Source: Nitrospirota bacterium | Lineage (GTDB): Bacteria > Nitrospirota > Thermodesulfovibrionia > Thermodesulfovibrionales > JdFR-86 | Reading direction: 5' to 3' | Assembly: GCA_963721805.1 (NCBI GenBank) | Contig: CAVRJY010000005.1 | Coordinates: forward strand, 19,318 to 83,317 | DNA: 64,000 nt | Shown: in pieces, positions 4,968 through 62,709 of the stretch | Position numbering within the stretch: position 1 is the stretch's first letter | Layout: each line of letters starts with the position of its first letter | The notes under the pieces: generated by a model | What the model was told of the DNA's origin: nothing | Databases searched by the model: none | What the model saw: the letters and a program-made list of their open reading frames with translations, nothing else | Translations under genes and position numbers: made by a program

Positions 4968-5177
4968 GAGCGTCTTGAAAGCGCTCGAAGCGTCTTGAAA
5001 GCGCTCCGAATCGCTTGATGCTGCGTTGGACTTCAAAAACTCGCCCTCTATGTACATCCAAGTACACCATCGGGCGGTTTTCTTGTCCTGCCTTGCCTGA
5101 AGACGATTTAGGCGCGCTTTCGGGGGGAGAGAATAACGGAGCCCCCCGCGCCCCACGAGGTCAACGGCATTGATTGG
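4968..5177 (-). repeat. SRE copy R1 (full length; head variant b, body type 1)
   Basis: Head GGTCAACGGCAT at 5159-5170, core CATCGGGCGG/GTACA motifs. Tail carries a 20-bp tandem duplication (4970-4989 and 4990-5009). Confidence 0.85.
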
Positions 5178-5202
5178 ATGGAAAAGTGGTATTATTCCTG
5201 AA

Positions 5203-5706
5203 ATGGACCTGCTTGAGGGAATATACACGCGCCGGAGCGTGAGGAAGTTCACGGCAGAGGACGTCTCGAAAGAGGCGGTCTCGGAGGTCGTCCGCGCCGG
5301 TACGTGGGCGCCGTCGGGCATGAACAACCAGCCCTGGCGGTTCGTCATAGTCCGCACGCCGGAGATGAGGCGCACACTTGCGGGATACACGAAATACGGC
5401 ATGGTCATCGAAGGCGCGCCGGTCGCCATAGCGGTATTCATCGAGACCAGCGAGATGTACAACGCGACCAAGGACCATCAGGCCATCGGCGCGTGCCTTC
5501 AAAACATGCTGCTCGCCGCGCATGCGCAGGGCCTCGGCGCGGTATGGCTGGGCGAGATACTAAACCGCGCGGCCGAGGTAAGAGTGGCGCTCGGAGTTGG
5601 AGAATCTCTGGAACTCATGGCGGTGCTCGCGATAGGCCATCCCGAAGCAGGAAAGCATCACTCTAAACGCAGGCCGGTAGAAGAAGTACTGCTCAAAGAA
5701 ATCTAG
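5203..5706 (+). CDS. Nitroreductase family protein
   Basis: RRSVRKF...PSGMNNQPWRFVIV...HAQGLGAVWLG motifs. Start moved to the Met after the R1 head. Confidence 0.8.
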   Translation: MDLLEGIYTRRSVRKFTAEDVSKEAVSEVVRAGTWAPSGMNNQPWRFVIVRTPEMRRTLAGYTKYGMVIEGAPVAIAVFIETSEMYNATKDHQAIGACLQNMLLAAHAQGLGAVWLGEILNRAAEVRVALGVGESLELMAVLAIGHPEAGKHHSKRRPVEEVLLKEI

Positions 5707-5710
5707 CCTG

Positions 5711-5884
5711 CCTTCCTTGCCAAAGTCGCGCTAAATACGCGTGATACGTTGTCACGGCTCGGAAATCCGTCCTCCAGAGTACATCTCAGTACACTTGCGG
5801 ACGTTTTCCTCGCCGTTCCTAGTCTGACGCGATTTATCGCGCTTTAAGTATCCGCTGCATAATCGTGCGAGCGGTCAACGGCAT
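5711..5884 (-). repeat. SRE copy R2 (head type 2, body type 2)
   Basis: Tail CCTTCCTTGCCAAAGTCGCG at 5711, head GCGGTCAACGGCAT ending at 5884. Abuts R3 head to head. Confidence 0.85.
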
Positions 5885-6079
5885 ATCTAATTAAGCAGTT
5901 GACCTTGGGGGTGCGGGGGTCCAGCGGCTGGGCCGCGTATAACCCCCGAAAGCGCAGCCAAATCGTCTTCAGACTAGGCAGCGGCGAGAAGATCGCCCGA
6001 TGGTGTACTTGGACGTACATAGAGGGCGAGTCTTTGAAGCCCAACGACGTATCAAGCGATTTGGGGCGCTTTCCCTTCC
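5885..6079 (+). repeat. SRE copy R3 (head variant a, body type 1)
   Basis: AT box ATCTAATTAA plus GCAGTTGACC at 5895-5904. Tail GATTTGGGGCGCTTTCCCTTCC ends 3 nt before the pfkB-like stop. Confidence 0.85.
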
Positions 6080-6082
6080 CGC

Positions 6083-6992
6083 TTAGAGCTCTTCGAAGTG
6101 ACTAAGCGCCTTAAACCCTCTATAGCGGTTCTCTATCTCGCGATAGTCGAGAGAGCGGAGCCTATCCAGGCTAAACGCCTCGACATTAAACGAGGCCATG
6201 ACAGAGCCCATCACTACCGCGCGCCGCATCGCGGCCTCGCCGAAGTCCATCGAGTTCGCGAGGTATCCGATGAACCCGCCCGCGAAGGTGTCGCCCGCGC
6301 CGGTCGGGTCGTAGACGTCCTCGAGCGGGTATGCCGGGGCCGCGAAGACCCCGTTGGCCGAGAACATCAGCACGCCGTACTCGCCGCGCTTTATCACGAC
6401 CGTCTGTGGCCCGAGCGTCATGATCACACGCGCGGCCTTCACGAGGTTGCGTCTCGCCGGTGAGCTGCCGGGCCTCGGCGTCGTTGATCAGCAGTATGTT
6501 GACGAGCTTGAGTGTCTTAAGCAGCGAGTCGCGCTGGCCCGAGATCCAGAAGTTCATCGTATCCATGGCGATGACCTTGGGGGCCTTGACCTGCCCCACG
6601 ACCTCGCGCTGGAGGTCGGGGTGTATATTGGCGAGGAAGACGACCTCGGCCTCGCGGTGCGCGGCGCTCAGTATGGGCTTGAAGGTCTCAAAGACGTTAA
6701 GCTGCGTATCGTGCGTGCGTGCCTCGTTTAGCTCGTATGTGTATGAGCCCTTCCAGCGGAAGGTCTTCCCGGCGACGCGTTCTAATCCCGAGAGGTCGAC
6801 CCCGCGCGATTTGAGGAACTTGACGTGCTTGTCCGGGAAGTCCTCGCCGACTACGGCGACGAGGCTTACGTCCGTGAAGTAGCTGGCCGAGGTCGAAAAG
6901 TACGTGGCAGAGCCCCCGAGCGCGTCTTCGACCTCGCCAAAGGGCGTCTTTACGGAATCCAGCGCCATCGAGCCCACCACCAGTAGTCCCAT
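6083..6992 (-). pseudogene. PfkB-family sugar/nucleoside kinase, frameshifted
   Basis: ORFs 6186..7010 and 6083..6442 are N- and C-terminal halves (DPTGAGDTFAGG motif in the C-half). One extra base sits near 6445-6452 (ACGCAACCTC vs expected ACGAACCTC). Confidence 0.7.
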
Positions 6993-7128
6993 CCTCACAG
7001 CCTCCCGCAAGCGTAATTTCTCGGCGTATTATACACGAGATGGAATCGGGGGAGGCAATTTTGGTGTTGACACACGCGCTGTTTGGCATTAATATCTGTG
7101 CATCCATCAACACACGGAGGAACCGATA

Positions 7129-8804: not shown

Positions 8805-10196
8805 ATGAGATACATTAGGCGATTGTTGATGATTGTTTTATCGCTTGCGCTGTTTGTGGGCTGCGGGCTTGGGCAGATAAAACCGCCCGAGGCCCGTGTC
8901 ACGCCCGCGCAGGAGCCTCCGGCCGCGGACTCCTATCTCTTGATGCCAGTAACCGTCTCGCTCGACAAGGTCGTCGCGGAGCTCGACGGCGCGATCCCCC
9001 AAAGCGATGACCGTGACCGCGGGAACAAGGACTGGAAGGTAATCGGCCGCGTGGGCGGGGAGATCGGACTGCGCTATTACTGGGAGCGGGGCCCCGTCTC
9101 GCTGAGCGTGAGCGGGCGGCGCTTGAGGGCCGAGACCGCGCTCAGATACCGCGCAAGGGTCGGGCTGCGTGCGGGCAAGGGCTGGAAGGAGACGTTTTGC
9201 TGCGGCTGCGGCGACCTGAGCACCGCGCGGATAGGGCTTTCGACCCCAATTTCCATAAACCCTGACTGGAGCATCCACACTAAGATCGCGGCCACGCTTG
9301 GTGACACGGGACACCGCTGCAAGGTGAAGGTGCTTAATTTCGACGCGACTGAACTCGTGACCTCCAAGCTCCAAGACCTGATGAACTCCAAGGCCTCTGT
9401 GGTGGATCGGCTCATACGGGAAAAGGTGGACATCAAGCCCAAGGTGCAGGAGGCATGGCGGATACTGCAGCAGCCGATCCCGGCCGGCGATAACGCAAAC
9501 CTGCTCATAAATCCCACGGGCCTGATGGTCTCGCCGTTAAGCGGGGACGGGAATTCCGTGAGCTTCTCGGTTGGAGTGGTGGCGCAGCCAAGGCTGGTCG
9601 CCGGGGTGCTGCCACCCGTGAGCTCAATCCCTCTGCCGAACCCTGAACCCAACGGCTCCCGGCAACGAGTTTCATGTCGCGCTCGAGGGGGAGGTGACAT
9701 ATGATTATGCCACCCAAAAGCTCGCGGACGCGGTCGTCGGGCATGAGTTCCCGATAGGGGACAAAAAGATCACGATAGCGGGCGCGAGGGTGTACGGCTC
9801 GGGGCAGTCCGTGGTGGTCGAGGCCGCGATCAAGGGCTCGTACGAGGGCACGGTCTACCTGTATGGAAGGCCCGCTTACGACGCCGCCAGCGCGCACCGT
9901 CTATATTCAGGACCTCGACTATACGATAGAGACAGACGAGCTTCCTCGGGAGGGTCGCGGACTGGCTCAGGCACTCGACCCTCCGGCAGGACATCGCGGC
10001 AAAGGCCAGGTGGTACGTCGGCGACAAGCTCGACGATGCCGATGCAAAGATAAACCGCGCCATCAATCGCGAGATCAGCCCCGGCGTATCCTTAAGCGGC
10101 AGCGTCGAGTTGCAGCCCGACCGGGTGATCCTGACCGAGACATCCATTAAGGCCATCGTCGTCGCGAGCGGGACGGTGGCGCTTAGCGTAAGGTAG
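8805..10196 (+). pseudogene. DUF4403-like lipoprotein, three successive +1 frame changes
   Basis: Lipobox-like LFVGCG at the N-terminus. The sensible protein path goes frame of 8805, then frame of 9694 (near 9650), then frame of 9863 (near 9890), then back to the first frame (near 9945), ending at TAG 10194-10196. Confidence 0.6.
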
Positions 10197-11575: not shown

Positions 11576-11622
11576 GCCTTATTATAGCACTCCCGGCTTC
11601 AAGTAAATCCCGGACGCACTAT

Positions 11623-11842
11623 CTCTAATAAAAGCCGTTGACCACGGGGGTGCGGGGGGCGTCCGTTATCCTCTCCCCCCGAAAGCGCGCCCAAATCGGC
11701 TTCAGACAAGGGGACCGGTTGGCCCCTTTTCTTTAGGAAGAGGGGTCCGTGACCTCCGCCCGATGGTGTACTGTGACGTACTTAGAGGGCGAGTCTTTGA
11801 AGACCAACGACGTATCAAGCGATTTGGAGCGCTTTCACTTCC
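11623..11842 (+). repeat. SRE copy R4 (solo; head variant b; body with embedded terminator-like hairpin)
   Basis: CTCTAATAAAA plus GCCGTTGACC at 11634-11643. Hairpin GGGGACCGGTTGGCCCC plus T-run at 11710-11734. Tail ends 35 nt before dnaE. Confidence 0.85.
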
Positions 11843-11877
11843 GCATTGACTCCCCCCCGACATAACCGATAAAATTG

Positions 11878-15618: not shown

Positions 15619-15813
15619 CCTTCTTGAAAGCGATCCAAAGTTCCGGGATACTGCGTCACGTCTCGGAAATCCGTCCTCGATGTACGTCTCAGTACACCGT
15701 CGGACGTTTTCCTCGCCGTTTCCTTGTCTGCCGAAATTTGGCCCGCTTTATGGGGTTAAACGCGGCCCAGCCGCTGGACCCCATACCCCGTGGTCAACGG
15801 CGTTAAATTAGGG
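15619..15813 (-). repeat. SRE copy R5 (head variant a, body type 2, unique covarying P2)
   Basis: Tail CCTTCTTGAAAGCG at 15619. Head GGTCAACGGCG at 15792-15802 plus AT box. Confidence 0.85.
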
Positions 15814-16166: not shown

Positions 16167-16194
16167 TCGTTCTGTGCATAAGTAAATAGAGGCT

Positions 16195-16243
16195 ATAGAC
16201 ACCACGGCCCCTCGTTCGAGGGGCCGTGGTGTCTATATGTTTA
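16195..16243 (+). terminator. Very long perfect hairpin (19-bp stem)
   Basis: ATAGACACCACGGCCCCTC ... GAGGGGCCGTGGTGTCTAT. Weak T-run. Confidence 0.55.
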
Positions 16244-16310
16244 ACATGGGATCGATGATCTTGCAATCGTGAATAAAATTAATCGCTAATCAAGAACCTT
16301 CATTGGCGCG

Positions 16311-16511
16311 GGGGCAGCGGGAGCAAACCAGCCACTATTATAATGCCGTTGACCGCTCGCACGATTATGCAGGGGAAGGTTAAAGTGCGAGAAATCGTGT
16401 CAGACAAGGAACGGCGAGGAAAACCGTCCGCAGTCGTACTGGGATGTACTTCGAGGACGGATTTCCGAAGCCGTGACGACGTATCACGCGCATTTCGCGC
16501 GCTTTGAGAAC
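16311..16511 (+). repeat. SRE copy R6 (head type 2, body type 2; core from 16336)
   Basis: GGGGCAGCGGG extension, TATAAT at 16339-16344, GCCGTTGACC at 16345-16354. Tail ends at the stop codon of the response regulator. Confidence 0.85.
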
Positions 16512-16910
16512 CTAGACTATCAGCCGCAGCTTTTTTATCTCTTGAAGCAATAAACCCTTGTCTATGGGCTTGACTATGTAGGAGAGCGCCTCACCTTTAT
16601 AGAACGCGACCGATACGTTCTTCGGGTCGTCGAGCGACGTGATCATGATGACCTTCATCGCCTCGTGCGCCCCGATGCCGCGCTCGCGCTCCATCGCGCG
16701 GACGTGTTCGAGGGCCTCCTGCCCGCTGAGGTGCGGCATGATGATGTCCATCAGTATCAGGTCGTAGGGCGCGCCCTCGTCAAGCGCGATGCGGCAGGCC
16801 TGCACCGCCTCCAGCCCGTTTACGGCGACCTCGATGCTGCCGTACTCGCTCAGGATCGAGGTCAGGATCTGCCTGTTGACGAAGTCGTCCTCAGCGATCA
16901 GTATCTTCAT
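16512..16910 (-). CDS. Single-domain response regulator (CheY-like receiver)
   Basis: MKILIAEDD...DLILMDIIMP...KP receiver signature. Start set at the second Met. Confidence 0.85.
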   Translation of the reverse strand: MKILIAEDDFVNRQILTSILSEYGSIEVAVNGLEAVQACRIALDEGAPYDLILMDIIMPHLSGQEALEHVRAMERERGIGAHEAMKVIMITSLDDPKNVSVAFYKGEALSYIVKPIDKGLLLQEIKKLRLIV

Positions 16911-24325: not shown

Positions 24326-24457
24326 CCTTCTTCAAAGCGCTCCAAATCGCGTGATACGTCGTCAGTTCTCGAAAACTCGCCCTCGGAGTACATCACAGTA
24401 CACCTCCGGGCGGTCTTCTTGCCCTGCCTTGTCTGAAGACGATTTGGCGCGCTTTCC
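24326..24457 (-). repeat. SRE copy R7 (5'-truncated: lacks head and P1 5' strand)
   Basis: Tail CCTTCTTCAAAGCGCTCCAAATCGCG at 24326. Body type 1 with AAGAC/GTTTT (G-U) helix. Ends at GCGCGCTTTCC. Confidence 0.8.
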
Positions 24458-24489
24458 TAAGAGTACCGGCTGGCTGTATAATAATCTCC

Positions 24490-28726: not shown

Positions 28727-28935
28727 ATCTTCTAAAGTCGCGCTAAATACGCGTGATACGTCGTCACCGTTCGAAAAACGATCCTCGAAGTATGTCCATA
28801 TACGACTGCGGGGGTCACAGACCCCTCCTGTAAAGAAAAAGGTGCCCATGGCACCCCTAGTCTGACGCGATTTATCGCGCTTTAAAGTGGTCATTGCATA
28901 ATCGTGCGAGCGGTCAACGGCATTGATTAGAGCAT
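28727..28935 (-). repeat. SRE copy R8 (head type 2; body with embedded hairpins; GTAT/ATAC P4 variant)
   Basis: Tail CTTCTAAAGTCGCGCTAAATACGCG. Hairpins at 28808-28857. Head GGTCAACGGCAT ending 28923 plus TGATTAGAGCAT. Confidence 0.85.
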
Positions 28936-28964: not shown

Positions 28965-29192
28965 ATGAGGAAGATCAAGATAACCGCCGAGCTGTTGCCT
29001 GCCGAGGAAGGCGGCTTCGTGGTGTATTGCCCCGAACTCGACATAACCACCGAGGGCGAGACCGCCGAGGAGGCAATCGCGATGCTCAAGGATGCCGCGC
29101 TTGGGTATGTCGAGGTCACGGGCATCGAGAACATCCCCCATTTTTCCGCTAATACCGTCCGGGAAGAGCTTGAACTCGTGGTGAATGGCTAA
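28965..29192 (+). CDS. hicB: HicB-like antitoxin
   Basis: 75 aa, GGFVVYCPELDITTEGETAEEAIAMLKDAA. Overlaps the hicA start. Confidence 0.7.
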   Translation: MRKIKITAELLPAEEGGFVVYCPELDITTEGETAEEAIAMLKDAALGYVEVTGIENIPHFSANTVREELELVVNG

Positions 29193-29433
29193 AGCGCCTT
29201 CCGTCAGCGGCAAGGAGCTGTCCGCTGTGCTTGAGAGGGAGGGCTTCAAGCTCGTAAGGCAGACCGGAAGCCACAGGATATATCAGAAGCAGACCGAAGA
29301 AGGCACAATTACAATCCCCGTCCCGGTGCATTCGAACAAGCCGCTTAAGAAAGGCACCCTCCACGCGATCATCAAGAAAGCCGGAATCACGATGGAGAGA
29401 CTTTCGTTCCTGCTCGCGATCCTGTTCGGCTAG
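29185..29433 (+). CDS. hicA: HicA family toxin
   Basis: 82 aa, GKELSAVLEREGFKLVRQTGSHRIY...PVHSNKPLKKGTLHAIIKKAGI. Confidence 0.75.
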   Translation: MAKAPSVSGKELSAVLEREGFKLVRQTGSHRIYQKQTEEGTITIPVPVHSNKPLKKGTLHAIIKKAGITMERLSFLLAILFG

Positions 29434-29519
29434 GGGGCAGCGCCCCTTGGCTGCCGAAATTTATCGCGCTTTGATGTAGCTTATGCCTAACCGTGCGAGC
29501 GGTCAACGGCATGTTGAGG
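29434..29519 (-). repeat. SRE copy R9 (3'-truncated: head, P1 and first part of P2 only, ending at a GGGGC..GCCCC hairpin)
   Basis: Head GGTCAACGGCAT at 29501-29512. CCGAAATTTATCGCGCTTTG resembles R5. Hairpin at 29434-29446. Confidence 0.7.
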
Positions 29520-29524
29520 CTACC

Positions 29525-30349
29525 TCATTCAGCGGTTGACCAAGCAGCGTAATACGTGTCGTTCAAGTAATTTGCAAGCTTGTTGGTCCCATCAACAAAC
29601 TGCTTCCATACCTGTCGAGTTTCAACAAGCAGAAAATCCAACTCAAAATCAGGAGGTTGTTGTCCAGGGATTGCCAATAATTTGCCTTTTTCTTGCTGTA
29701 TTGGTGCTATCTGAGTCTCCTTAGGCCAATCCACATATGGTGTCTCATTGTGGACAAATTCATGTCGATATGTTTTCATCAGCTTTCTTGTTTCTTCTGA
29801 ATCGAAACATTCATAAAGCAGACTGCACAATTCAGGGTTCTTCTTATTGGCTTTCTTGCAATATATTGAGAAAGACATTTTCTGTTTATTTGTTTCTGTA
29901 TTGATAAAACATAATTTAGCATGCGAGTTCAGTAACCATGCGAGCTTTTCACGATAAGAATGTAGCCTGAATATCGCATTATCCAAGTAATATTTCGAAT
30001 AAAACCAAGCTTCGCCACAGAACGATTTCGAATCCACAAAATCAAGGAATTCAGCACACTGACTTTTTGTCTTTTGCTCATTAAGGTATCTTGACCAAGC
30101 TAAGGCCCAACTGAGACTAACAGCTATAGAGCTTCCACAGTTGTAGACTTGTCTCCACCATTTTGGAATATTATTTACATCACAGTAAAACTCAATAGAA
30201 TCGAGAGCGGGACGCTTCAGAATATTACCTAGAGAAATCCTGCCTTTTGGCAGTGGCAAACTGTCCCAGTCAGTATTTTCAATTTTTAAGGATGTTGCGT
30301 ATTCGGCAACTATACGGAGTCTATCAAGGTAGGCTTCTTTTTCATCCAT
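29525..30349 (-). CDS. AT-rich hypothetical protein with C-terminal Rx4H motif (YRHEFVHN); possible HEPN-type
   Basis: 274-aa ORF with composition far below the backbone. HEPN assignment rests only on the motif. Confidence 0.5.
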   Translation of the reverse strand: MDEKEAYLDRLRIVAEYATSLKIENTDWDSLPLPKGRISLGNILKRPALDSIEFYCDVNNIPKWWRQVYNCGSSIAVSLSWALAWSRYLNEQKTKSQCAEFLDFVDSKSFCGEAWFYSKYYLDNAIFRLHSYREKLAWLLNSHAKLCFINTETNKQKMSFSIYCKKANKKNPELCSLLYECFDSEETRKLMKTYRHEFVHNETPYVDWPKETQIAPIQQEKGKLLAIPGQQPPDFELDFLLVETRQVWKQFVDGTNKLANYLNDTYYAAWSTAE

Positions 30350-30666: not shown

Positions 30667-31028
30667 CTTCATTAACAATAGTTAATCGAAAGTTAATAGA
30701 AAACGCACAGGGCTCAATTTTTCCTATAACCTTCTGTTTATATATAAACCAAAGTTTGGCATTCTTTAGTGTATAGTGGTGACATGAGCATGATAGAATC
30801 ATATTTGATGGGCTGGACAGGCGAGGATGCAGGGTTCCGCACTTGTTCGGATAAATCGCTAAATACCGCTCTTTTTATCCGAACATCCGAACAAGACGGA
30901 CTCAGTGAAGCTATATATTCCGCAGGGTTAGCCTCGTTTTTGTCTCCAACATCCGAACAAAAAAGGCAAAAACGCGCGCGCACGCGCGCGGAATGCGTAA
31001 CTATACCTAAGCGCGAACGTCCGAACAC
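30667..31028 (+). repeat. Module X1: 360-bp AT-rich module fused to the head of R10
   Basis: Roughly 75-80 percent identical (by eye), with no indels, to 47670-48032. Contains ATTAAC/GTTAAT sites, GTTTATATATAAAC, five ATCCGAACA-like sites and a (CG)n palindrome at 30973-30990. Confidence 0.8.
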
Positions 31029-35391: not shown

Positions 35392-35398
35392 GGTACTG

Positions 35399-36850: not shown

Positions 36851-36904
36851 TTACACCAACCGATGAGTTCTTCGACACTTGAGTCCACCGGCACCCATGA
36901 TAAT

Positions 36905-37096
36905 CTCTAATTAATGCCGTTGACCTTGGGGTGCGGGGTCCAGCGGCTGGATCGCATAACCCCGAAAGCGCGCCCAAATCGTCTTCAGACAAGGAAACGG
37001 CGAGGAAAACGTCCGATGGTGTACTGAGACGTACATCGAGGACGGATTTCCGAGACGTGACGCAGTATCAAGCGATTTGGAGCGCTTTGAAGAAGG
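36905..37096 (+). repeat. SRE copy R12 (mosaic: head variant a, body type 2, tail type 1)
   Basis: CTCTAATTAAT plus GCCGTTGACC at 36916-36925. Tail ...GCGCTTTGAAGAAGG ends 7 nt before the PilZ stop. Confidence 0.85.
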
Positions 37097-37103
37097 CACC
37101 AGA

Positions 37104-40872: not shown

Positions 40873-40902
40873 TAACTCTGAATATTACGAGCGAAGAGGG
40901 AA

Positions 40903-41034
40903 AGGGGGCCGGATGGCCCCTTCTCTTTTATGGGAGGGGTCCGTGACCCCCGCAGGTGTACTGGGATGTACTCCGAGGGAGCGGCTGCGAGCCGTGACGA
41001 CGTATCACGCGATTTCGGCTCGCTTTCTAGAAGG
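40903..41034 (+). repeat. SRE copy R13 (5'-truncated; begins at the terminator-like hairpin)
   Basis: GGGGGCCGGATGGCCCC plus T-run (40904-40930), GGGGTCCGTGACCCC (40936-40950), then body and tail. The tail overlaps the ccsA-like stop codon. Confidence 0.75.
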
Positions 41035-46642: not shown

Positions 46643-46674
46643 CCCTTATAATAACATCCGCGCTATTTCAGTCG

Positions 46675-46863
46675 CCTTCTTCAAAGTCGCGCGAAATACG
46701 CGTGATACTGCGTCAGGGCTTCAGAAATCCGTCCTCAACGTACGTCACAGTACGCCTCGGACGTTTTCATTGCCCTTCCTTGTCTGACACAATTTCTCGC
46801 GCTTTAGCAATGAGCTGCCTGCGCGTGCGAGCGGTCAACGGCTTTGATAAGAGGGGGCACTCG
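46675..46863 (-). repeat. SRE copy R14 (head type 2, body type 2)
   Basis: Tail CCTTCTTCAAAGTCGCG at 46675 (32 nt from the mnmG start). Head GGTCAACGGC at 46843-46852 plus TTTGATAAGAG. Confidence 0.85.
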
Positions 46864-46903
46864 GCCCGGCCGCTGCTCCGGAGCTCCCGAGGAAGGCTAT
46901 TAA

Positions 46904-47479: not shown

Positions 47480-47669
47480 ACACCTTTACCTATCAACCTT
47501 GTCCCAGCTTTCGTTGAAGCCCTAAGGGCTCGCCTTGCCATTATCATAAACTGCCTACATTTATCTGTCAATAATATTTTGCAGCAAGACAACCGTGAGG
47601 CTTAATCATATCGCCATATTCGCATACGTTCGGAACTGGTTTATGGGAAAGAGTTCCCATGGCATCTCT

Positions 47670-48032
47670 CTTCATTAACCATAGTTAATCGAAAGTTAAT
47701 AGAAAACGAATGGCCCCTAATTTTTCCTATTATCTTCGGTTTATATATGAACCAAAGTTTGGCATTCTTTAGTGTATAGTGGAGGCTATGAGTATGATAG
47801 AGTCCTATTTGATGGTCGCGGCAAGTGTTATGGATGTCCGCGCCGCGTGTTCGGATAATGGGCCAAAAACATCGCTTTTTATCCGAACATTCGAACAGGG
47901 GAACTTTTCAAAAGCTAGTAAATCCGGTGGGTTAGCTCCGATTTTGCCCCCAACATCCGAACAAAATCGGCAAAAACGCGCGCGTGCGCGCGCGGTATGC
48001 ATATATATGCCTAAGCGGGGATATCCGAACAT
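47670..48032 (+). repeat. Module X2: second copy of the 360-bp AT-rich module, fused to the head of R15
   Basis: Collinear with X1. GGAGG then ATG at 47794. Inverted repeat GTTCGGATAA (47849-47858) / TTATCCGAAC (47879-47888). (CG)n palindrome at 47977-47994. Confidence 0.8.
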
Positions 48033-48201
48033 GCCGTTGACCGCTCGCACGCGCAGGCGGGAGAAACTTAAAGCGCGAGAAATCAGCGTCAGACTAGGAG
48101 CGGCGAGGGAAACGTCCGAGGGTGTACTGAGACGTACATCGAGGACGGATTTCCGAAGCCGCGACAACGTATCACGCGATTTGGCGCGCTTTGGAGAAAA
48201 C
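48033..48201 (+). repeat. SRE copy R15 (head type 2, body type 2)
   Basis: GCCGTTGACC at 48033-48042. Tail GATTTGGCGCGCTTTGGAGAAAAC. Confidence 0.85.
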
Positions 48202-48219
48202 TACAAACGCAGCTTTCTC

Positions 48220-50688: not shown

Positions 50689-50695
50689 TCCGCAG

Positions 50696-50891
50696 TCTTT
50701 TTCAAAGCGCTCCAAATCGCTTGATACGTCGTCATCAGTCGAAAATAGTCCTCGGAGTATGTCCATATACACCTGCGTCCTATTTTCGCCTTCTTCCTAG
50801 TCTGAAGACGATTTGGCCGCGCTTTCGGGGGTTGGTCGCGGCCCAGCCGCTGGACCCCCGCACCCCCAAGGTCAACGGCTTAGATTAGATA
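50696..50891 (-). repeat. SRE copy R16 (head variant a; private P3 AAAATAG/CTATTTT; GTAT/ATAC P4)
   Basis: Tail GTCTTTTTCAAAGCGCTCC at 50696. Head GGTCAACGGC at 50870-50879 plus TTAGATTAGATA. Confidence 0.85.
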
Positions 50892-52338: not shown

Positions 52339-52881
52339 ATGAAAGGCGAGGGCACCAAGGAGAACAGCACAGAAAAGCTGTTGTCTTATGGCGGCAGGAT
52401 TGCTGAGCTATCCATCGGAATTACCGCAAGTCAATTTTTAGTGTTCGTTTTCGATTATCTTCTTTATCCGTTTATCGTTTATCAATTCGGGCTTCTCATG
52501 GGCGGGATTGTAATGACTATTTTTTCATTGATTGCTTGTTTACTTGTAATGAAAGTTTATGATTGGTCTAAACGGGATTGGTTAGGCATTGAGTCAATAA
52601 AACGGTTAAAGGAATACACAGGAGGTAGAAAAACAGGAAAGATACTGTCATGGATATTAAGACAGAGTAATCCAGTGGTCATGCTATTTCTCTCAATCAA
52701 GTTTGACCCATTTATCGCAACTATATACATGAGACATGGAAGCCACCAATATAACGGCATGAGCAAGAGGGATTGGAAGATATTCTTTACAAGTCTTGTA
52801 CTCAGTAATATCTATTGGACACTCGCAGCCTTCACAGGGGTTACGGTCATAGAGTACGCATGGAGGCACTTATTCAAATAA
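52339..52881 (+). CDS. AT-rich polytopic membrane protein, hypothetical
   Basis: About 180 aa with four or five hydrophobic segments. The stop TAA at 52879-52881 directly abuts the R17 head. Confidence 0.5.
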   Translation: MKGEGTKENSTEKLLSYGGRIAELSIGITASQFLVFVFDYLLYPFIVYQFGLLMGGIVMTIFSLIACLLVMKVYDWSKRDWLGIESIKRLKEYTGGRKTGKILSWILRQSNPVVMLFLSIKFDPFIATIYMRHGSHQYNGMSKRDWKIFFTSLVLSNIYWTLAAFTGVTVIEYAWRHLFK

Positions 52882-53058
52882 GCCGTTGACATTGGGGGCG
52901 CGGGGGGCGTCCGTTGCAGTGCCCCCCGAAAGCGCGCCCAAATCGTCTTCAGACAAGGCAGGGCGAGAAGACCGCCCGATGGTGTACTTGGGCGTACATA
53001 GAGGGCGAGTCTTCGATGCCCAACGACGTATCAAGCAATTTGGCGCGCTTTAAAGAAA
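52876..53058 (+). repeat. SRE copy R17 (head variant b, body type 1)
   Basis: GCCGTTGACA at 52882-52891. Tail GCGCGCTTTAAAGAAAGC ends 5 nt before the rodA stop. Confidence 0.85.
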
Positions 53059-53063
53059 GCGAG

Positions 53064-54182
53064 CTAGTAGAAAAGTTCGAACCGTCTGGTTCGAACGTTG
53101 ATTAACAAGGCGGCGGCTATGTAGTTGCCGGCCAGCGCCGTCCCCCCATAGCTCATGAACGGCAGCGGTATGCCCACGACCGGCATCAGCCCCAGCGTCA
53201 TCGAGACGTTGATCACGGTATAGAGGAAGAACATGAAGGTGATGCCCGTTGCGAGCATGCGGCCGAAGTCGTCCTTGGCCTTCCCTGCAGTATCGAGGCC
53301 CCGGTGCAGGAGCGTGAAGTACAGCCCCAGCAGCGCCAGCGAGCCTACCAGCCCCCACTCCTCGGCGAAGATCGAGAAGATGAAGTCCGTGTGCTTCTCT
53401 GGCAGGAACCTAAACGGCCCCTGCGTGCCCTTGAGGTAGCCCTTGCCGAACAGCCCGCCCGAGCCCACCGCGACCTTCGACTGGTTGATGTGGTAGCTCA
53501 GGCCGTCGGGGTCGCTGTCGGGGTCCACGAAGGACAGTATGCGGTTTTTCTGGTAGTCCTTAAGGTGGTCCCAGGCCACGGTGCCCGCGACCGGCAGCAC
53601 GACCAGCGAGACCAGCACGCTCACGATCAGGAGCTTCTTGCCGACGCCCTTGGCGAGCACCATCAGCACGAACATCCCAAGCAGTATCACCGCGGTGCCG
53701 AGGTCCGGCTGCTTGATGATCATCAGCACCGGTACGAGCGTGAAGGACAGAAACGCGGTTATCACCTGCCGGGCCGTAAGCGCCCCCTCTATGCCCGAGA
53801 GGTAGCGCGAGAGCATCATCAGGTATGCGAGCTTGAAGACCTCGCTCGGCTGGAACTGCACCCCGCCGACGGATATCCACCGCTTGGCCCCCATGCCGGT
53901 ATGACCGAGCACGAAGACCAGCGCGAGCAGCACGATGCCCAGGGCGTAGAGGTATGGCGCGGCGCGGTGAAACCAGGTGTAGTCCACGCTCAGGATCAGC
54001 GACATCATCCCCAGCCCGATCAGCAGCCAGTAGGTCTGTCGCACGTAGAACGTGGGCCAGCTGGTATCGAAGAGCGGCCGCGTGGCGCTGAAGATCGTCA
54101 TGATCCCGAGCGCGGTGATCGAGAGCACGATGCCGAGCGTCGGCCAGTCCATGTTCGCCAGCAGCCGTCTGTCAATGCGCAC
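53064..54182 (-). CDS. rodA: Rod-shape peptidoglycan glycosyltransferase RodA (SEDS family)
   Basis: 372-aa polytopic ORF (PEKHTDFIFS, MSYGGT motifs). GTG start at 54182. Downstream of mrdA. Confidence 0.9.
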   Translation of the reverse strand: MRIDRRLLANMDWPTLGIVLSITALGIMTIFSATRPLFDTSWPTFYVRQTYWLLIGLGMMSLILSVDYTWFHRAAPYLYALGIVLLALVFVLGHTGMGAKRWISVGGVQFQPSEVFKLAYLMMLSRYLSGIEGALTARQVITAFLSFTLVPVLMIIKQPDLGTAVILLGMFVLMVLAKGVGKKLLIVSVLVSLVVLPVAGTVAWDHLKDYQKNRILSFVDPDSDPDGLSYHINQSKVAVGSGGLFGKGYLKGTQGPFRFLPEKHTDFIFSIFAEEWGLVGSLALLGLYFTLLHRGLDTAGKAKDDFGRMLATGITFMFFLYTVINVSMTLGLMPVVGIPLPFMSYGGTALAGNYIAAALLINVRTRRFELFY

Positions 54183-54196
54183 TGTTGGCTCCGGGA

Positions 54197-54405
54197 ACGT
54201 TTAATAAGCCGTTGACCTTGGGGTATGGGGTCCAGCGGCGGAGCCGCGACCAACCCCATAAGGTGCGATAAATCGTCTTCAGGCAAGGAAGGGCGAGGAA
54301 AACGTCCGCAAGTGTACTGTGATGTACTCTGGAGGACGGATTTCCGAAGCCCTGACGCAGTATCAAGTGATTTAGCGCGCCTTCAAAAGGTGTGCAAACA
54401 GCTCT
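54197..54405 (+). repeat. SRE copy R18 (solo; head variant a, body type 2) inserted between mrdA and rodA
   Basis: GCCGTTGACC at 54208-54217 and tail GCGCGCCTTCAAAAGG at 54375-54390. Flanked by AATGCGCACTGTTGGC at 54174-54189 and 54406-54421. Confidence 0.85.
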
Positions 54406-56182
54406 AATGCGCACTGTTGGCCTCCAGGTTGGCGAGGTATGTTTCTATTGCCTTCTTCGCTATGGGCGCGGCGGCCGAGCCGCCGTGGCCTCCGTGCTCG
54501 ACGAGCACCGCGCATGCGATCTCCGGGTGCGAGGCCGGGGCATAGGCCACGAACCAGGCGTGGTCCTTAAGCGCGTCCGGCGTTGCGCTCGCGAGGCGTT
54601 TCTTGTTCGCGTTTGAGTATACCTGCGCGGTGCCGGTCTTGCCCGCGATCACGAAATCGTCGGAGTGCGCGGCGTGGGCCGTGCCGCGCGGGTCGTTGAC
54701 CACGCCTATGAGCGCGCGCTTTACGAGCTCTATGTTCTCGGGGCTGAGGTCATAGGAGTCCGCCGCGGCGCGCTTTGCCTCATACGGGGCTATGCGCTTG
54801 AGCGTCGGCTCGTAGAGCCTGCCGTCGGCCGCGACGGTCGCGATCATCCGCGCGAGCTGAAACGGCGTGACCGCGACGTAGCCCTGCCCGATTGCGGCGT
54901 TGTACGTCTCGCCGAGGTACCAGCTCTCGCCCTTTGTCTTGAGCTTCCACTCCTCGTCCGGTATGAGCCCCGGCCGCTCCATCGCGAGCCCCAGCGTGCT
55001 CGTCGCACCGAGGCCGAGGCGGCGGGCCATCTTCGCTATCGAATCGATCCCGGTCAGCGCGCCGACGGTATAGAAGTACACGTCGCACGACTGTATCAGC
55101 CCGGCCTCGAACGCGAGCGCGCCGTGGCCGCGCTTCTGCCAGCAGCCGAACCGCCACTTGCCGTACTGCAGGCCGCCGTTGCAGACGACGACGCGGCCCG
55201 GCGTGACCTTGCCGGACTCCAGCGCTGCCAGCCCTGTGACTATCTTGAAGGTCGAACCCGGCGGGTACTGGCTTTGGAGCGCGCGGTTGAGCATCGGCTT
55301 TTCCGGGTCGTTTATCAGGCGGCCCCAGTCGCCGCTCTTTATCCCGAAGCTGAAGAGGTTCGGGTCGTAAGAGGGCTTGCTCACCATCCCCAGGATCTCG
55401 CCGGTTGAGGGGCGGATTGCGACGAACGCGCCCTTGCGGTCCCCGAAGGACTCCTCGACGGCCTTCATCATCTCGATGTCTATGCTCAGGTGCAGGCCCT
55501 CGCCCTTCCGGGGCGGGGTCTGAGCGATCACGCGTATCTGCTTGCCGAGGGCGTTGACCTCTATCGCGCGCTCCCCGGGCACGCCGCGCAGGGTCTTGTC
55601 ATAGAGCTTCTCGACCCCGAACTGCCCGATGAAGGCCTGCATCGGGACGTCGGCGAATTCGGGCAGCTCGGCCTGCTCCGGGGTGATGCGGCCGAGGTAT
55701 CCCAGCAGGTGCGCCCCGACCTCGCCGTAGAGGTACTTCCGCGACTTGTCGACCATCACGTTCAGGGCCGGGAAGTCCGAGAGCCGGGCCTCGACCTTCG
55801 AGACCTCCTCGAGGTTCAGGCCCTCGCGGACGATGATCGGGTCAAGCGTATTTCTTGCGCGGTCGGCGCGTTTCTGGAGCCACTGGGGGTCGAGGCCGAG
55901 GAAATCCGCGGCGCGGCCGAGGTCCGTTATGTCGATGAGCTCTGGGTTTAAGGTGATCGAGAACGCGGCCGAGCTCTGGACGAGCGCCTTGCCCCAGCGG
56001 TCGTAGATGATGCCGCGCGGGGCCGGGACCTTCTCGAGCCTCAGGCGGTTTTCAAACGCCATGCGGCTGTATTCGGCGCCCCTGAGTATCTGCAGGTGCC
56101 AGAGCCGTATCGCCAGGATCGAGAAGAATATCCCGATGAAGAAGATGATCGCGAATGAGTTTATGTTGCGTTCAGCTCTCAT
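54404..56182 (-). CDS. mrdA: Penicillin-binding protein 2 (elongasome transpeptidase)
   Basis: 592 aa with SxxK (STFK), SxN and KTG (AGKTGTAQ) motifs. Located in the mre operon. Confidence 0.9.
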   Translation of the reverse strand: MRAERNINSFAIIFFIGIFFSILAIRLWHLQILRGAEYSRMAFENRLRLEKVPAPRGIIYDRWGKALVQSSAAFSITLNPELIDITDLGRAADFLGLDPQWLQKRADRARNTLDPIIVREGLNLEEVSKVEARLSDFPALNVMVDKSRKYLYGEVGAHLLGYLGRITPEQAELPEFADVPMQAFIGQFGVEKLYDKTLRGVPGERAIEVNALGKQIRVIAQTPPRKGEGLHLSIDIEMMKAVEESFGDRKGAFVAIRPSTGEILGMVSKPSYDPNLFSFGIKSGDWGRLINDPEKPMLNRALQSQYPPGSTFKIVTGLAALESGKVTPGRVVVCNGGLQYGKWRFGCWQKRGHGALAFEAGLIQSCDVYFYTVGALTGIDSIAKMARRLGLGATSTLGLAMERPGLIPDEEWKLKTKGESWYLGETYNAAIGQGYVAVTPFQLARMIATVAADGRLYEPTLKRIAPYEAKRAAADSYDLSPENIELVKRALIGVVNDPRGTAHAAHSDDFVIAGKTGTAQVYSNANKKRLASATPDALKDHAWFVAYAPASHPEIACAVLVEHGGHGGSAAAPIAKKAIETYLANLEANSAH

Positions 56183-59782: not shown

Positions 59783-60893
59783 ATGACTAAAGAGGAAATA
59801 AAGCTGCAGGCAGGCCTTCTTAGGGAGCGCACCGATTCCCTAAGAGGGTATCTTTGATCTCCCCACCCTCACGCACAAGCTCGAAGAGATAGACAAGGCA
59901 CTCGGGGCCGAGGACACATGGGCCTCGCACGAGCGCGCCACCGAGCTCAACCGCCAGAAGACCCGCATCCAGTCCACGCTCGCGCCGTTTGAGGCCGCCG
60001 ACCGGAAGATGACATACATCGAGAGCTCAATCGGGATGCTCGACGAGGAGGGCGGCGAGATGTTCGCCCCCGAGCTCGCGGCAGCGCTTAACGAGCTCAT
60101 CCCTGAACTTGACGGCCTCGAGCTTCGGTGCCTGATGTCCGGCGAGCGCGACATCTCAAACGCGATAGTCACGATACATCCCGGCGCGGGCGGCACCGAG
60201 AGCCAGGACTGGGCCCAGATGCTGATGCGCATGTACCTCAGGTGGGCCGAGACGCACGGCCTCGCAACCGAAATCCTCGACCTCCAGCCGGGCGACGAGG
60301 CCGGGATCAAGAGCGTCACGTTCGAGGTCACCGGGCCGTACGCATACGGCAACCTCAAGACCGAGGCCGGGGTGCACAGGCTCGTGCGCATCTCGCCGTT
60401 TGACGCGGCGAAGCGCCGCCACACCTCGTTTTCCGCGGTGCTCGTATACCCCGAGGTCGAGGGCGACGTCGAGGTCGAGCTCAGGGACGAGGACATCAAG
60501 ATGGACACGTTCCGCGCCTCGGGCGCAGGCGGGCAGCACGTCAACAAGACCTCCTCCGCGGTGCGGCTGACGCACATCCCCTCGGGCGTGATCGTGAGCT
60601 GCCAGAACGAGCGCTCCCAGCACAGAAACCGCGAAAGCTGCATGAAGATACTGAAGGCCAAGCTCTACGACCTCGGGCTCAAGGAGCGGGAAAACGAGAT
60701 GGAGGGCATCGTCGGGGAGAAGAAGAATATCGCCTGGGGCAGCCAGATACGCTCGTACGTCCTGCAGCCCTATCGCATGGCGAAGGACCATCGCACGGGA
60801 GTCGAGATCGGCAACGTGGACGCGGTACTCGACGGGGCACTCGACCTGTTCATAAAAGCTGCACTGAAAAATAAACTGGGGCGGACGTCTTAA
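59783..60893 (+). CDS. prfB: Peptide chain release factor 2, requires programmed +1 frameshift
   Basis: ORF0 ATG 59783 runs to an in-frame TGA at 59855. The +1 frame continues DLPTLTHKLEE... into ORF 60009..60893 (SPF and GGQ motifs). Confidence 0.9.
59843..59858 (+). promoter_or_regulatory. prfB +1 frameshift site (AGAGGG TAT CTT TGA T)
   Basis: SD-like AGAGGG 3 nt upstream of slippery CTT followed by TGA (59852-59857), as in the classical RF2 autoregulatory site. Confidence 0.85.
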
Positions 60894-61084
60894 TAAAGTC
60901 GCGCCAAATCGCTTGATACTGCGTCACGGCTTCAAAGACACGCCCTCTATGTACATCCCAGTACACCATCGGGCGGTCTTCTCGCCCTTCCTTGTCTGAA
61001 GACGATTTCTCGCGCATTAAGTTTATTCTTGCGTAATCGTGCGAGCGGTCAACGGCATGATTTGAGCGGCCCATCCGCTGCCCC
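60888..61084 (-). repeat. SRE copy R19 (mosaic: head type 2, body type 1)
   Basis: The tail overlaps the prfB stop (TCTTAATAAAGTCGCGCC). Head GGTCAACGGCAT at 61047-61058. Extension GGCCCATCCGCTGCCCC. Confidence 0.85.
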
Positions 61085-61133
61085 AAAGTATGATTAGATT
61101 GGATATGTGCCATCACTTGACACTACAAAGTTG

Positions 61134-61912
61134 CTAAATTTTTTGGCCTGTATTAAGCCGGCGCTCTAGAGCCTCAAGGAACTTTATTGAAGATGCGACA
61201 TGTGTATAGATTAGTAGACTCTCTTCGTAATTGAGGAAGCTATTGTCATGGGCAAGGCTTTGGTCATTACGTACTTTATTAAAGGCCTCAAGTGTTGAAA
61301 TGCTTGATTTTAGGATGCGCTCGGTCATTTCTGACTCCAAATGCCCATGCACCTTTAATGTTTTAACGTACTCGCCAACCAAACTATGCAATGGCTTATC
61401 TTTGTCTGTGGATATTCCGTGATTTTGGCAAAGTACTCGAAGATACTTAATAGTAAAGGTGTGCAGTCTGTCCAAACCGACCTCTGGCTCGTGTTTTTCA
61501 ATGGATTCCCGGACAGCCCTTGCCAACACAGCAAACTCTCGTTCAGGACTATTAGGGGTTAATGTCACAACTTCTGGGATTCCTGCTGCCTCAGAAAGCC
61601 TTGCTAAGGCCCTGCGACAATCATCATACGCTTTTAACATTTCCGCGTTAGCGAACTCTACGGAAACGCACTGCATTAGGTCTGTGAGCAGTTTGGCAAC
61701 TACATCGTTTGACTCCCGTGTCCAAAATGCTCTAAGCCGGTTTGCTTTTTGAAACCACTTCCGAAGTTGTACTTCTCGTCTAAGATGCTTAACCCAGTAC
61801 TATCAAAGACAAACTCATCGAATAAGCGAGTTGTAAAATCCAAAACGTAGCCACTTCCCATGCCGAAGAGTGCCTCAAAGTTCCGTTTTTCAATTTTCGT
61901 TAGGTCAGACAT
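61134..61912 (-). pseudogene. Abortive-infection-type protein (Abi_C/HEPN-like C-terminus), frameshifted
   Basis: ORF 61700..61912 (GYVLDFTTRLFDEF...DEKY) and ORF 61134..61676 (VRNDQSLAH motif) join as ...GSGSKANRLRAFW... if homopolymer runs near 61745-61760 are corrected. Confidence 0.6.
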
Positions 61913-61966
61913 AGATTCCTGCGCACAAAAATAATTAATAAGTCTGCATCTACCTTAACCTTTTTA

Positions 61967-62021
61967 TATAGCGCGAGATTTCCGAGGCCGTGACGCAGTA
62001 TCCAGGAAATCTCGCGCTATA
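61967..62021. repeat. SRE fragment R20: foldback built from SRE pieces
   Basis: Perfect 17-bp inverted repeat TATAGCGCGAGATTTCC / GGAAATCTCGCGCTATA. Stem and loop carry GATTTCCGAGGCCGTGACGCAGTATC from the SRE 3' region. Confidence 0.6.
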
Positions 62022-62028
62022 ATGATTT

Positions 62029-62235
62029 TTACTGCCCTACGGCTGTGAGGTCGAGTTTAAAGAGCGTATTGATCGGGAATTTCTTGCTTGCTTCGAGGAT
62101 TTCGATACCCACGAGGTCGTTTTGGGCCGTAGTGTGCAGGGCTACTCCTTCCGCGATCTCGATCGCGCCGTCAGGCTTCTTGGGTGAAAGCTGTATATAT
62201 GCCGCATCGGCCTCTTTATCGTACTTAATTTTCAT
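62029..62235 (-). CDS. DUF2283 domain protein (putative antitoxin-like partner)
   Basis: 68 aa, MKIKYDKEADAAYIQL...LVGIEILEAS. Overlaps the upstream DUF4258 gene. Confidence 0.65.
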   Translation of the reverse strand: MKIKYDKEADAAYIQLSPKKPDGAIEIAEGVALHTTAQNDLVGIEILEASKKFPINTLFKLDLTAVGQ

Positions 62236-62476
62236 TTGCGCCTCCCCAAGCCTTACGCTTAAGCGGATATGCTGTTATTACAAATGTCTCGCCGCCTGAA
62301 AGCTCAAAAACCACCTTCAGCGGGTATCCAGAAAAGCGCTTTCCAAAGCGCTTGATCGCGACTTGTTTGCCCGTTTGAGACTCAAGGAGTTCAGGCGTGC
62401 CTATTGCCTCCGAAACATCATCAGCGGTGATCCCGTATAGTTTCATGTTGCTCCGGGCATGGCGCGACAGTCTCAT
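62225..62476 (-). CDS. DUF4258 domain protein (putative toxin-like partner)
   Basis: 83 aa, RLSRHARSNMKLYGITADDVSEAI...FVITAYP. Confidence 0.6.
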   Translation of the reverse strand: MRLSRHARSNMKLYGITADDVSEAIGTPELLESQTGKQVAIKRFGKRFSGYPLKVVFELSGGETFVITAYPLKRKAWGGANEN

Positions 62477-62513
62477 AAATTATTGTACCAGAATGTGAAA
62501 GTGATAAATAGTA

Positions 62514-62709
62514 TATATAACTAAGACGTTGACCTTGGGGGCGCGGGGGTCCAGCGGCTGGGCCGCGTCTAACCCCCGAAAGCGCGCCCAAATCGGCTTC
62601 AGACAAGGCAGGGCGAGAAGACCGCCCGATGGTGTACTGGGATGTACATAGAGGGCGAGTCTTTGAAGCCCAACGCAGTATCAAGCAATTTGGAGCGCTT
62701 TGAAGAAGG
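62514..62709 (+). repeat. SRE copy R21 (head variant a, body type 1; near-consensus reference copy)
   Basis: GACGTTGACC at 62525-62534. Helices listed in the findings. Tail ...GAGCGCTTTGAAGAAGG ends at 62709. Confidence 0.9.

Follow-up and report, generated by a model that had tools for sequence, protein, structure and literature searches.

A dense family of hairpin-forming repeats at gene ends in a Nitrospirota-like genome

In a 64,000-nucleotide stretch of bacterial chromosome (contig CAVRJY010000005.1 of the Nitrospirota assembly GCA_963721805.1, positions 19,318 to 83,317; hereafter the window), one complex repeat recurs between genes so often that it raises an immediate question: what is this element, how did it reach so many sites, and what has kept it there? 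The setting is one of housekeeping genes (metG, holB, dnaE, purL, purF, nadE, mnmG, mreBCD-pbp2-rodA, prfB and htrA), and the nearest named homologues of the encoded RodA, approximately 60–63% identical, come from Thermodesulfovibrionales/Nitrospirota metagenome-assembled genomes (MAGs). The repeat family is previously undescribed, and no description of it was found in the literature.

The existence of the family is established by several searches of the window. A 30-nt piece of the consensus has eight matches at up to three mismatches where none is expected, an nhmmer profile built from six seed copies returns 19 copies at E<1e-8, and a covariance model of the core recovers the identical 19 copies with scores of 38–141 bits. 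The original prediction, made from the sequence of the window, had counted 21 copies or fragments of 175–210 nt, on both strands and totalling about 3.7 kb. The searches give 19 copies and one fragment, a count that reaches 21 by the addition of a partial tail duplication; 10 copies lie on the plus strand and 9 on the minus strand. The size of a copy extends somewhat further than predicted, to 175–230 bp, and the intervals sum to 3,787 nt, or 5.9% of the window, with a mean density of about one copy per 2.9 kb. Pairwise identity between cores ranges from 62 to 94% with a median of 76%, and there is no identical or near-identical pair. Copies are also found in separate assemblies, namely in a sister genome (ENA ERZ25039558, contig_107859; loci L012 and L013), in ENA ERZ25039477 (L011) and in Logan ERR12035932 (L001). 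In addition, a concatenated pseudo-protein of repeat translations matched only three over-extended open reading frames (ORFs) and pointed to L011, and on a 352,515-bp contig from the MAG of the window, the N-terminus of P0121, an over-extended LysM/SLT ORF, runs across one full copy and a tandem partial 3′ half. The family is therefore present on other contigs of the same genome.

What the repeat had been predicted not to be was borne out as well. It is not a CRISPR array, as the spacing is irregular (0.2–19 kb), both strands are used and the units are of variable length and identity. It contains no conserved ORF: a sense frame is open in copies of the alpha type, and a small protein gene was considered for this reason and rejected, since frame-shifting indels separate the subtypes and some copies carry stops in all six frames. 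Pfam scans of the approximately 50 ORFs in the window reveal no transposase, integrase, reverse transcriptase, TnpB/IscB or Cas domain, and a scan of the whole window against Rfam 15 returns no family at the gathering threshold except tRNA-Gly, with only chance-level miRNA and ACAT matches when single copies or copy pairs are searched at E≤10. There is no match to the element by blastn in plasmid and phage collections. Searched with a 21-nt pattern to which 7 of the 19 window copies conform, 185,579 GTDB species-representative genomes give one chance match and JGI metagenome contigs three matches, none of which is a family copy; of two patterns run against viral contigs, one has two matches and the other zero, and the covariance model finds no copy at either viral locus.

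All five parts of the predicted consensus were found, with the refinements that the variable module comprises three types and that the fourth and fifth parts are the two arms of one hairpin. Read from head to tail, the element consists of an AT-rich box of about 12 nt with the consensus (C)TCTAAT.AA, the head GCCGTTGACC, the variable module (V1), a 126-nt core and a purine-rich tail of variable length, GAAGAAGG... The head is near-invariant, being exact in 14 of 19 copies and carrying one mismatch in 4 more. V1 is of type A (GCTCGCACGATTATGC...) in seven copies and the fragment, of type B, a two-level GC hairpin with CCAGCGGCTGG, in six copies, and of type C (GGGGGGC...CCCCCC) in four. An archaeal promoter or small RNA with the AT box as its TATA box was considered and rejected because the host carries bacterial DnaE, PBP2 and RodA.

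The core folds into a single rod-like hairpin on the head-to-tail strand, a fold that is supported by covariation and favours that strand; the same rod is obtained when each copy is folded alone. It is closed by a stem of about 20 bp, in which AAAGCGCG..AAAUCG.. pairs with ..CGAUUU..CGCGCUUU, and beyond this stem lies an internal loop with the invariant segments CAGACWAGG and GACGNNGUAUCA. The rod then continues towards its apex through a short stem, a tandem G-A/G-A internal loop and a stem of about 11 bp to an apical GUAC/GUAC hairpin. A plain MAFFT alignment of 16 window copies shows pairing in 94.4% of pair cells and two-sided changes in 15 of the 36 pairs; none of 500 shuffles matches the observed values, and sliding the partner leaves 25–47% pairing. 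With 24 copies from three sources the corresponding figures are 95.1% and 16 of 36 (again 0 of 500 shuffles, and 30–46% with a slid partner), in an alignment that was fitted to the covariance model and is hence biased towards the structure. Compensatory changes private to one copy also occur, for example in copies 5 and 15, and private stem changes retain pairing in 16 of 30 cases versus approximately 30% expected (p=0.006). G-U cells number 34 versus 10 A-C cells, and the predicted RNA energy makes the sense strand the more stable one in 22 of 24 copies, with means of -55.3 versus -48.9 kcal/mol (p=3e-5). Pairing of the head with the tail or with the internal loops was also considered, and no conserved complementarity was found.

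Comparison with the sister genome, whose coding DNA is 90.3% identical to that of the window and whose 1,572 four-fold degenerate sites are 73.7% identical, shows that the copies are old and have been retained. The sites of copies 7 and 14–18 each hold a copy in the sister genome, and that of copy 8 holds the 3′ third of one; all seven comparable sites are occupied in both genomes, with no presence/absence difference over approximately 25 kb. In three outgroup loci (L006–L008; RodA 80–84% identical at the amino-acid level) there are zero copies in 23 kb, for which the probability of chance absence at the density of the window is about 3e-4, and the outgroup pbp2 and rodA genes overlap by 11 nt without insert at the place where the window holds copy 17. 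Because seven of seven sites are shared between the sisters and the outgroup sequence has no copy, the spread predates the sister split and postdates the separation from the outgroups.

The retained copies are also constrained in sequence. The core of copy 16 is identical to its ortholog at 119 of 126 positions (94%; P=1.5e-9 against the four-fold rate), and head plus V1 are identical at 36 of 37 positions in copy 14 and 51 of 55 (93%) in copy 15, whereas intergenic flanks outside the element are approximately 50–65% identical between orthologs. At the same time, orthologous copies are mosaics, in which some segments retain an identity of 93% or more and others belong, over contiguous tracts, to another subtype. 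The entire core of copy 15 is of a different subtype from that of its ortholog, the swap running exactly from AAAGCG to CGCUUU, while copy 17 and its ortholog differ in V1 and closing stem and copy 14 and its ortholog differ in the apical part; the same subtypes are found in both genomes. We read this pattern as probable purifying selection on subtype sequence and fold, combined with occasional gene conversion among copies. Neutral decay is disfavoured, because pairing would not stay at 95% in the face of approximately 26% neutral divergence.

The position of the copies relative to genes is likewise non-random. On our own gene map, inferred from ORFs and Pfam domains, copies are present at 8 of 10 convergent, 3 of 11 divergent and 7 of approximately 38 tandem junctions, so that convergent junctions stand out from the remainder (8/10 versus 10/49, p=6e-4). 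Head-to-head pairs lie at two convergent junctions: copies 2 and 3 share a common AT box, the nitroreductase stop TAG lying inside the tail of copy 2, and copies 5 and 6 are about 530 nt apart. Where a tail faces the 3′ end of a gene, the stop of that gene lies 0–22 nt from the closing stem, and TAG stops are commoner beside copies (10/15 versus 12/40, p=0.03). The C-terminus of RodA is unaltered, with copy 16 beginning directly past the stop codon. Canonical terminators, composed of a hairpin and a U-tract, are not enriched in the first 20 kb of the window (18 versus 16.5 expected). A separate feature of the spacer between copies 5 and 6 is a 44-nt palindrome with a 20-bp stem at 16194–16237.

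A few copies preserve traces of how they may have arrived. Long direct duplications of 13–34 nt flank 4 of about 31 copies. At copy 17 the duplication is 22–23 nt long (54174–54196 and 54406–54429) and restores the end of pbp2 on one side and the ribosome-binding site and start of rodA on the other. At copy 10 it measures at least 24–34 nt and comprises two C-terminal coding ends of tauE, LGLAAKYLLR* and LGLAMKYFMR*; these 3′ ends (35357–35391 and 35596–35628) are identical at 24 of 34 nt, third codon positions account for 7 of the 10 differences, and the displaced copy is in frame with a stop. A 13-nt duplication flanks the full-length L013 ortholog of copy 7, and copy 5 has a weak one of 17 nt. 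In three of the duplication cases the 5′ boundary lies 12–13 nt before the head, while the 3′ boundary ranges from +1 to +28 nt past the stem; the sequence upstream of the 5′ boundary is not conserved. Since the clearest cases lie where selection would keep both duplicate copies, other duplications may have decayed. A TA/CTAG target duplication of the IS630/mariner kind was considered, CTA being common at both junctions, and rejected, because terminal inverted repeats are lacking, CTAG lies anywhere from 0 to 28 nt from the stem, and the AT box falls within the insert as delimited by the copy 17 duplication.

From these observations a history can be proposed to which we assign a probability of about one half: an old burst of a non-autonomous hairpin element that is now sedentary, selected for its fold and subject to gene conversion, and that, as a structured RNA, probably acts where transcription units end. 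At its origin the family would have been a mobile element that formed hairpins and, not being autonomous, depended for its copying on an enzyme from another part of the genome; a single burst in an ancestor shared by at least two uncultured Nitrospirota-like species would have spread it. Copies would have settled mainly at gene 3′ ends, chiefly between convergent genes, and would have been essentially sedentary since, remaining under purifying selection for sequence and fold and exchanging segments by gene conversion. At present they would act as structured RNAs at transcription-unit boundaries, where the hairpin may form a barrier that ends or insulates transcripts and protects 3′ ends, as has been proposed for REP/BIME and ERIC sequences. 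A mobile origin is indicated because the site of copy 17 is vacant in the outgroups and four copies have flanking duplications; the boundary role appears likeliest given where the copies lie, given that the fold is strand-specific and canonical terminators are scarce, and given that three copies have gained terminator-like modules. The sequences themselves show the family, its covariation-supported fold with a favoured strand, the retention and constraint of orthologous copies, their mosaic make-up and their biased placement, whereas spread by transposition, the type of enzyme and a function at the RNA level are inferred.

A number of observations weigh against this proposal. The main unexplained feature is the flanking duplications, as no standard mechanism of bacterial transposition accounts for duplications of this length at so few copies. 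The extremities have no terminal inverted repeats, the 5′ end (AT box plus GCCGTTGACC) not being complementary to the 3′ end (GAAGAAGG...), and the only inverted repeat is the internal closing stem. Nor is there a short target duplication of fixed length: in flank alignments of the 19 window copies, two cases are significant (22–34 nt) and the rest are background. No mobilizing enzyme was seen in the approximately 100 kb covered of the two genomes, and the lack of presence/absence polymorphism between the two species means that there is no evidence of recent mobility. As to the proposed function, the basic element is not a canonical intrinsic terminator, its stem being followed by CUUU with a 3-nt U run, and a terminator scan finds none in the copies tested. 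Many copies downstream of genes run antisense to the mRNA of the gene, and copy 17 is antisense within the pbp2-rodA operon; such placement is awkward for a fold selected in the sense orientation, because it would need promoters of the copies' own or the use of both strands. Finally, the proposal has no explanation for the invariance of the head GCCGTTGACC.

The copies could instead be paralogous, free-standing genes for small RNAs that function in trans, together forming a very large family, with AT box and head as the promoter or 5′ end and the rod as the mature RNA. A strand-specific fold with covariation would be expected of such genes, as would subtypes common to both species, and the orthologous constraint includes the unpaired loops CAGACWAGG and GACGNNGUAUCA; furthermore, the head, which is the most conserved segment, contains TTGAC and follows an AT-rich box, which reads TATAAT in copy 6. 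However, a sigma-70 promoter with TTGACC as its -35 element had to be rejected, since no -10 element follows at 16–19 nt in any of the three V1 types and promoter scans are empty inside copies. The basic element has no terminator, one gene per 3 kb would amount to hundreds of genes, which is unprecedented, and head-less copies (in L011 and L013) and 5′-truncated ones keep the rod, while the gene-end placement and the filled or empty pbp2/rodA site resemble insertions. Free-standing RNA genes are for these reasons a doubtful account of the family. We consider it about as unlikely that copies multiplied by way of an RNA intermediate or copy choice, either as a retroposon resembling eukaryotic short interspersed elements (SINEs), by target-primed insertion with a reverse transcriptase acting in trans, or by template switching during replication. 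Such a route would accommodate the variable long duplications (copies 17 and 10, the copy 7 ortholog in L013 and possibly copy 5), the constant 5′ boundary and variable 3′ end, the absence of terminal inverted repeats, the purine-rich tail GAAGAAGG, the 5′ truncation of copies 7 and 12 and of the two head-less copies, and a fold selected on one strand. Yet duplications occur at just 4 of about 31 copies, of which the two clearest are needed for intact gene ends and so may represent a subset preserved by selection; a deletion between inverted copies accounts for the truncation of copy 7, no reverse transcriptase occurs in the sequence read, there is no A-tail, and the process has no bacterial precedent. 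Conceivably, hundreds of structured RNAs of about 180 nt (or single-stranded DNA hairpins) spread in this manner and were then kept by the host, each under selection, as boundary marks of transcription units across the genome, which would make them a new class of bacterial element and a counterpart of SINEs, but we give this prospect a slim chance.

A role at the level of DNA, with the copies as repeated sites for a chromosomal protein (nucleoid-associated, gyrase or IHF-like, as reported for BIMEs), the head as recognition motif and the palindrome as a structural feature, would account for the near-invariant head, the spacing of about 3 kb on both strands, the palindromic AT box common to a head-to-head pair and a sequence constraint that exceeds the needs of pairing. 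The excess of G-U over A-C cells and the energy advantage of the sense strand, however, fit a single-stranded fold rather than a duplex or cruciform, head-less copies have been retained, and the head misses the IHF consensus by one position (compared by eye), so that we deem this role unlikely. It is highly improbable that the copies are selfish junk, that is, inactive remnants of a mobile element decaying neutrally without present function: there are no near-identical copies, and truncated and rearranged ones exist, but orthologous segments are 93–97% identical against 74% at neutral sites, pairing is kept at 95% across 24 copies and the seven sites are filled in both species. An artefact of assembly or chimera formation, which had been named with the original prediction as an outcome that would overturn it, has a negligible probability. 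The L001 short-read contig, from another sample, does end inside a copy, but the copies have diverged, lie between intact housekeeping genes and occupy the same positions in the independently assembled sister genome, and the family recurs in independent assemblies. Because short-read contigs break at copies, the family fragments metagenome assemblies of this clade.

Table 1. Copies and fragments of the repeat in the window, with their modules and neighbours
Feature	Coordinates	Strand	V1 type	Core	Head	Remarks
Copy 1	4968–5180	-	C	alpha, 4996–5121	5159–5168	between divergent holB and nitroreductase gene
Copy 1, partial tail duplication	4968–4991
Copy 2	5710–5894	-	A	beta, 5721–5846	5873–5882
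Copy 3	5883–6083	+	B	alpha, 5948–6074	5895–5904	tail adjoins stop of convergent pfkB-like gene
Copy 4	11622–11846	+	C	11681–11837		extra internal module, GC hairpin then TTTTCTTT; directly upstream of dnaE promoter
Copy 5	15619–15813	-	B′	15625–15750		gamma-type closing stem; downstream of dnaE
Copy 6	16333–16514	+	A	beta, 16381–16507		convergent response-regulator stop directly after tail
Copy 7	24326–24456	-		24332–24456		core only; head and V1 deleted
Copy 8	28729–28933	-	A	28733–28884		internal hairpin and T-run module
Fragment	29434–29522 (repeat match 29440–29512)	-	A		29501–29510	head, V1 and 5′ closing-stem arm only
Copy 9	31017–31210	+	C	alpha, 31077–31202		upstream of alanine dehydrogenase gene; 375-nt repeat precedes
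Copy 10	35392–35594	-	A	mosaic, 35409–35531		between two diverged tauE 3′ ends
Copy 11	36904–37103	+	B	mosaic, 36964–37090		between convergent genes
Copy 12	40900–41032	+				5′-truncated; keeps internal hairpin and T-run module and 3′ half; convergent ccsA-like stop at stem end
Copy 13	46674–46854	-	A	beta, 46682–46806		upstream of mnmG
Copy 14	48021–48205	+	A	beta, 48069–48194		second 375-nt repeat precedes; sister ortholog exists
Copy 15	50689–50891	-	B	unusual, 50702–50826		sister ortholog exists
Copy 16	52870–53063	+	C	alpha, 52928–53053		tail adjoins rodA stop; sister ortholog exists
Copy 17	54197–54405 (with duplications 54174–54429)	+		54259–54385		between pbp2 and rodA
Copy 18	60891–61068	-	A	60894–61019		prfB stop adjoins closing stem; sister ortholog exists
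Copy 19	62513–62716	+	B	alpha, 62578–62703		upstream of htrA

The individual copies (Table 1) display further variation in module content. In copies 4, 8 and 12 the element also contains, in sense orientation, an additional internal module made up of a GC hairpin and, after it, TTTTCTTT. Two copies from the other assemblies (L011 262–430, minus strand, and L013 6825–6990, plus strand) are without the AT box and GCCGTTGA and have a common start, CC(T/A)(T/C)GGGGG; as both begin at the same point, the head may be a separable module. The truncation of copy 7 is a deletion, as seen by comparison of L013 5180–7005 with window positions 24457–24472: between the CCG/Fer4 gene and purL, the L013 segment contains a full-length copy, higB-higA, a 185-aa ORF and two further copies, and two inverted copies supply the end-points of the deletion, within their near-palindromic closing-stem arms. 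A GC motif, GGGG(NN)CAGCGGCTGGG(NN)GC, is found inside V1 modules of type B (e.g., at 5916–5936) and also just upstream of the AT box in four type-A copies (35578–35598, 61066–61086, approximately 16305–16330 at copy 6 and approximately 46855–46880 at copy 13), a distribution that points either to a REP-like unit of its own or to modules that have been reshuffled.

Copies 9 and 14 are each immediately preceded, on the 5′ side, by a second repeat of about 375 nt (window positions 30667–31040 and 47668–48045, 80–89% identical), which there stands in place of the usual AT box. Each of its copies contains ATCCGAACA five times, and it is kept at the orthologous site of the sister genome (L012 14683–15200); it may be a regulatory or promoter region. 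Among the genes that adjoin copies are a HEPN (Cthe_2314-like) gene at 29525–30349 and an Abi_C-domain gene at 61134–61676, both of types usual in defence or abortive infection, and hicB-hicA at 28965–29433 is bracketed by direct repeats (28851–28923 and 29440–29512) that consist of head, V1 and 5′ stem arm and belong to copy 8 and the fragment, respectively. Elsewhere in the window, imperfect repeats of approximately 30–36 nt within a PSP1-domain ORF (2526–2807) probably encode a repetitive Pro/Gly-rich segment, and a pfkB-family kinase gene (6083–7010) and a DUF4403 gene (8805–10053) each appear to be split into two overlapping ORFs, for which frameshifts, pseudogenes or sequencing errors are possible explanations.

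Bacterial repeat families that persist are rare, and the cause of their persistence is debated, the elements being seen as selfish replicators, host tools or both. The present family offers a test case, with a density of about 6%, a long and well-supported fold, site-by-site comparison in two species, and conservation above that of synonymous sites despite subtype swaps. It also provides a system outside the Proteobacteria in which the maintenance, RNA action and copying of such elements can be studied.

Its resemblances to known systems are distributed over several classes. ERIC/IRU of Enterobacteria and Correia/NEMIS of Neisseria are imperfect palindromes of 100–160 bp that occur in transcribed intergenic regions in both orientations; they form rod-like RNA hairpins, have size variants created by internal insertions, and have reported effects on the stability or processing of neighbouring mRNA. 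The element described here is likewise intergenic, present in both orientations, rod-like when folded and variable in size through internal modules, but it has neither the terminal inverted repeats at the true ends nor the TA duplications of those families, shows no sequence similarity to them, and at 5.9% exceeds their typical density. BIMEs are built of REP modules of about 35 bp with short linkers between them, whereas the unit here is one element of 175–230 bp with a 126-nt structured core. The BIMEs of E. coli are nonetheless similar in their mosaic modules, head-to-head arrangements, location at gene 3′ ends and convergent junctions, and gene conversion; for BIME copies, gene conversion was proposed by Higgins et al. 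1988, as cited in PMC12306157. REPIN/REP sequences are lineage-specific, vertically inherited and long-persisting, with a hairpin that is kept as the sequence drifts (PMC3337134; bioRxiv 10.1101/2021.07.10.451892). The retention of copies at seven of seven orthologous sites and their absence from the outgroups represent the same vertical, lineage-restricted persistence. A REPIN, however, is a symmetric doublet of two short REP palindromes, approximately 90 bp in length, whereas the arms of the present hairpin pair only with each other and contain no local palindrome, the hairpin is 126 nt long with asymmetric conserved internal loops, and it is preceded by an asymmetric 5′ head and V1. No RAYT (Y1/HUH) gene was found among the approximately 50 window ORFs or in L011–L013.

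IS200/IS605-derived and other HUH derivatives similarly have no terminal inverted repeats, a strand-specific hairpin and no short fixed duplication, but they use a fixed 4–5-nt target 5′ of the left end and show a replication-strand bias, while the orientation here is 10:9, some copies have long duplications and no Y1/HUH gene was seen. Compared for mechanism only, eukaryotic SINEs are also non-autonomous, with an RNA-like core, no terminal inverted repeats, variable long duplications and 5′ truncations; no reverse transcriptase, internal promoter or A-tail was seen here, and no bacterial SINE is known. Classical miniature inverted-repeat transposable elements, which are DDE-derived, differ in having terminal inverted repeats and a short fixed duplication. 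Integron attC cassettes differ as well, given that the copies here occur in both orientations beside housekeeping genes (dnaE, purL, purF, mreBCD-pbp2-rodA) and that no integrase lies in the window. An intrinsic terminator is matched only by the optional internal module of copies 4, 8 and 12, with its hairpin and TTTTCTTT. Because it has no REP doublets, terminal inverted repeats or short duplications, the family is not a member of REP/REPIN, BIME or ERIC. The original prediction had set it apart from REP/BIME palindromes as far longer and more complex, which holds for its length and modularity; its biology, in which extragenic hairpins sit at the ends of genes, persist by vertical descent and undergo gene conversion, places it beside REP/REPIN/ERIC rather than in a wholly new category.

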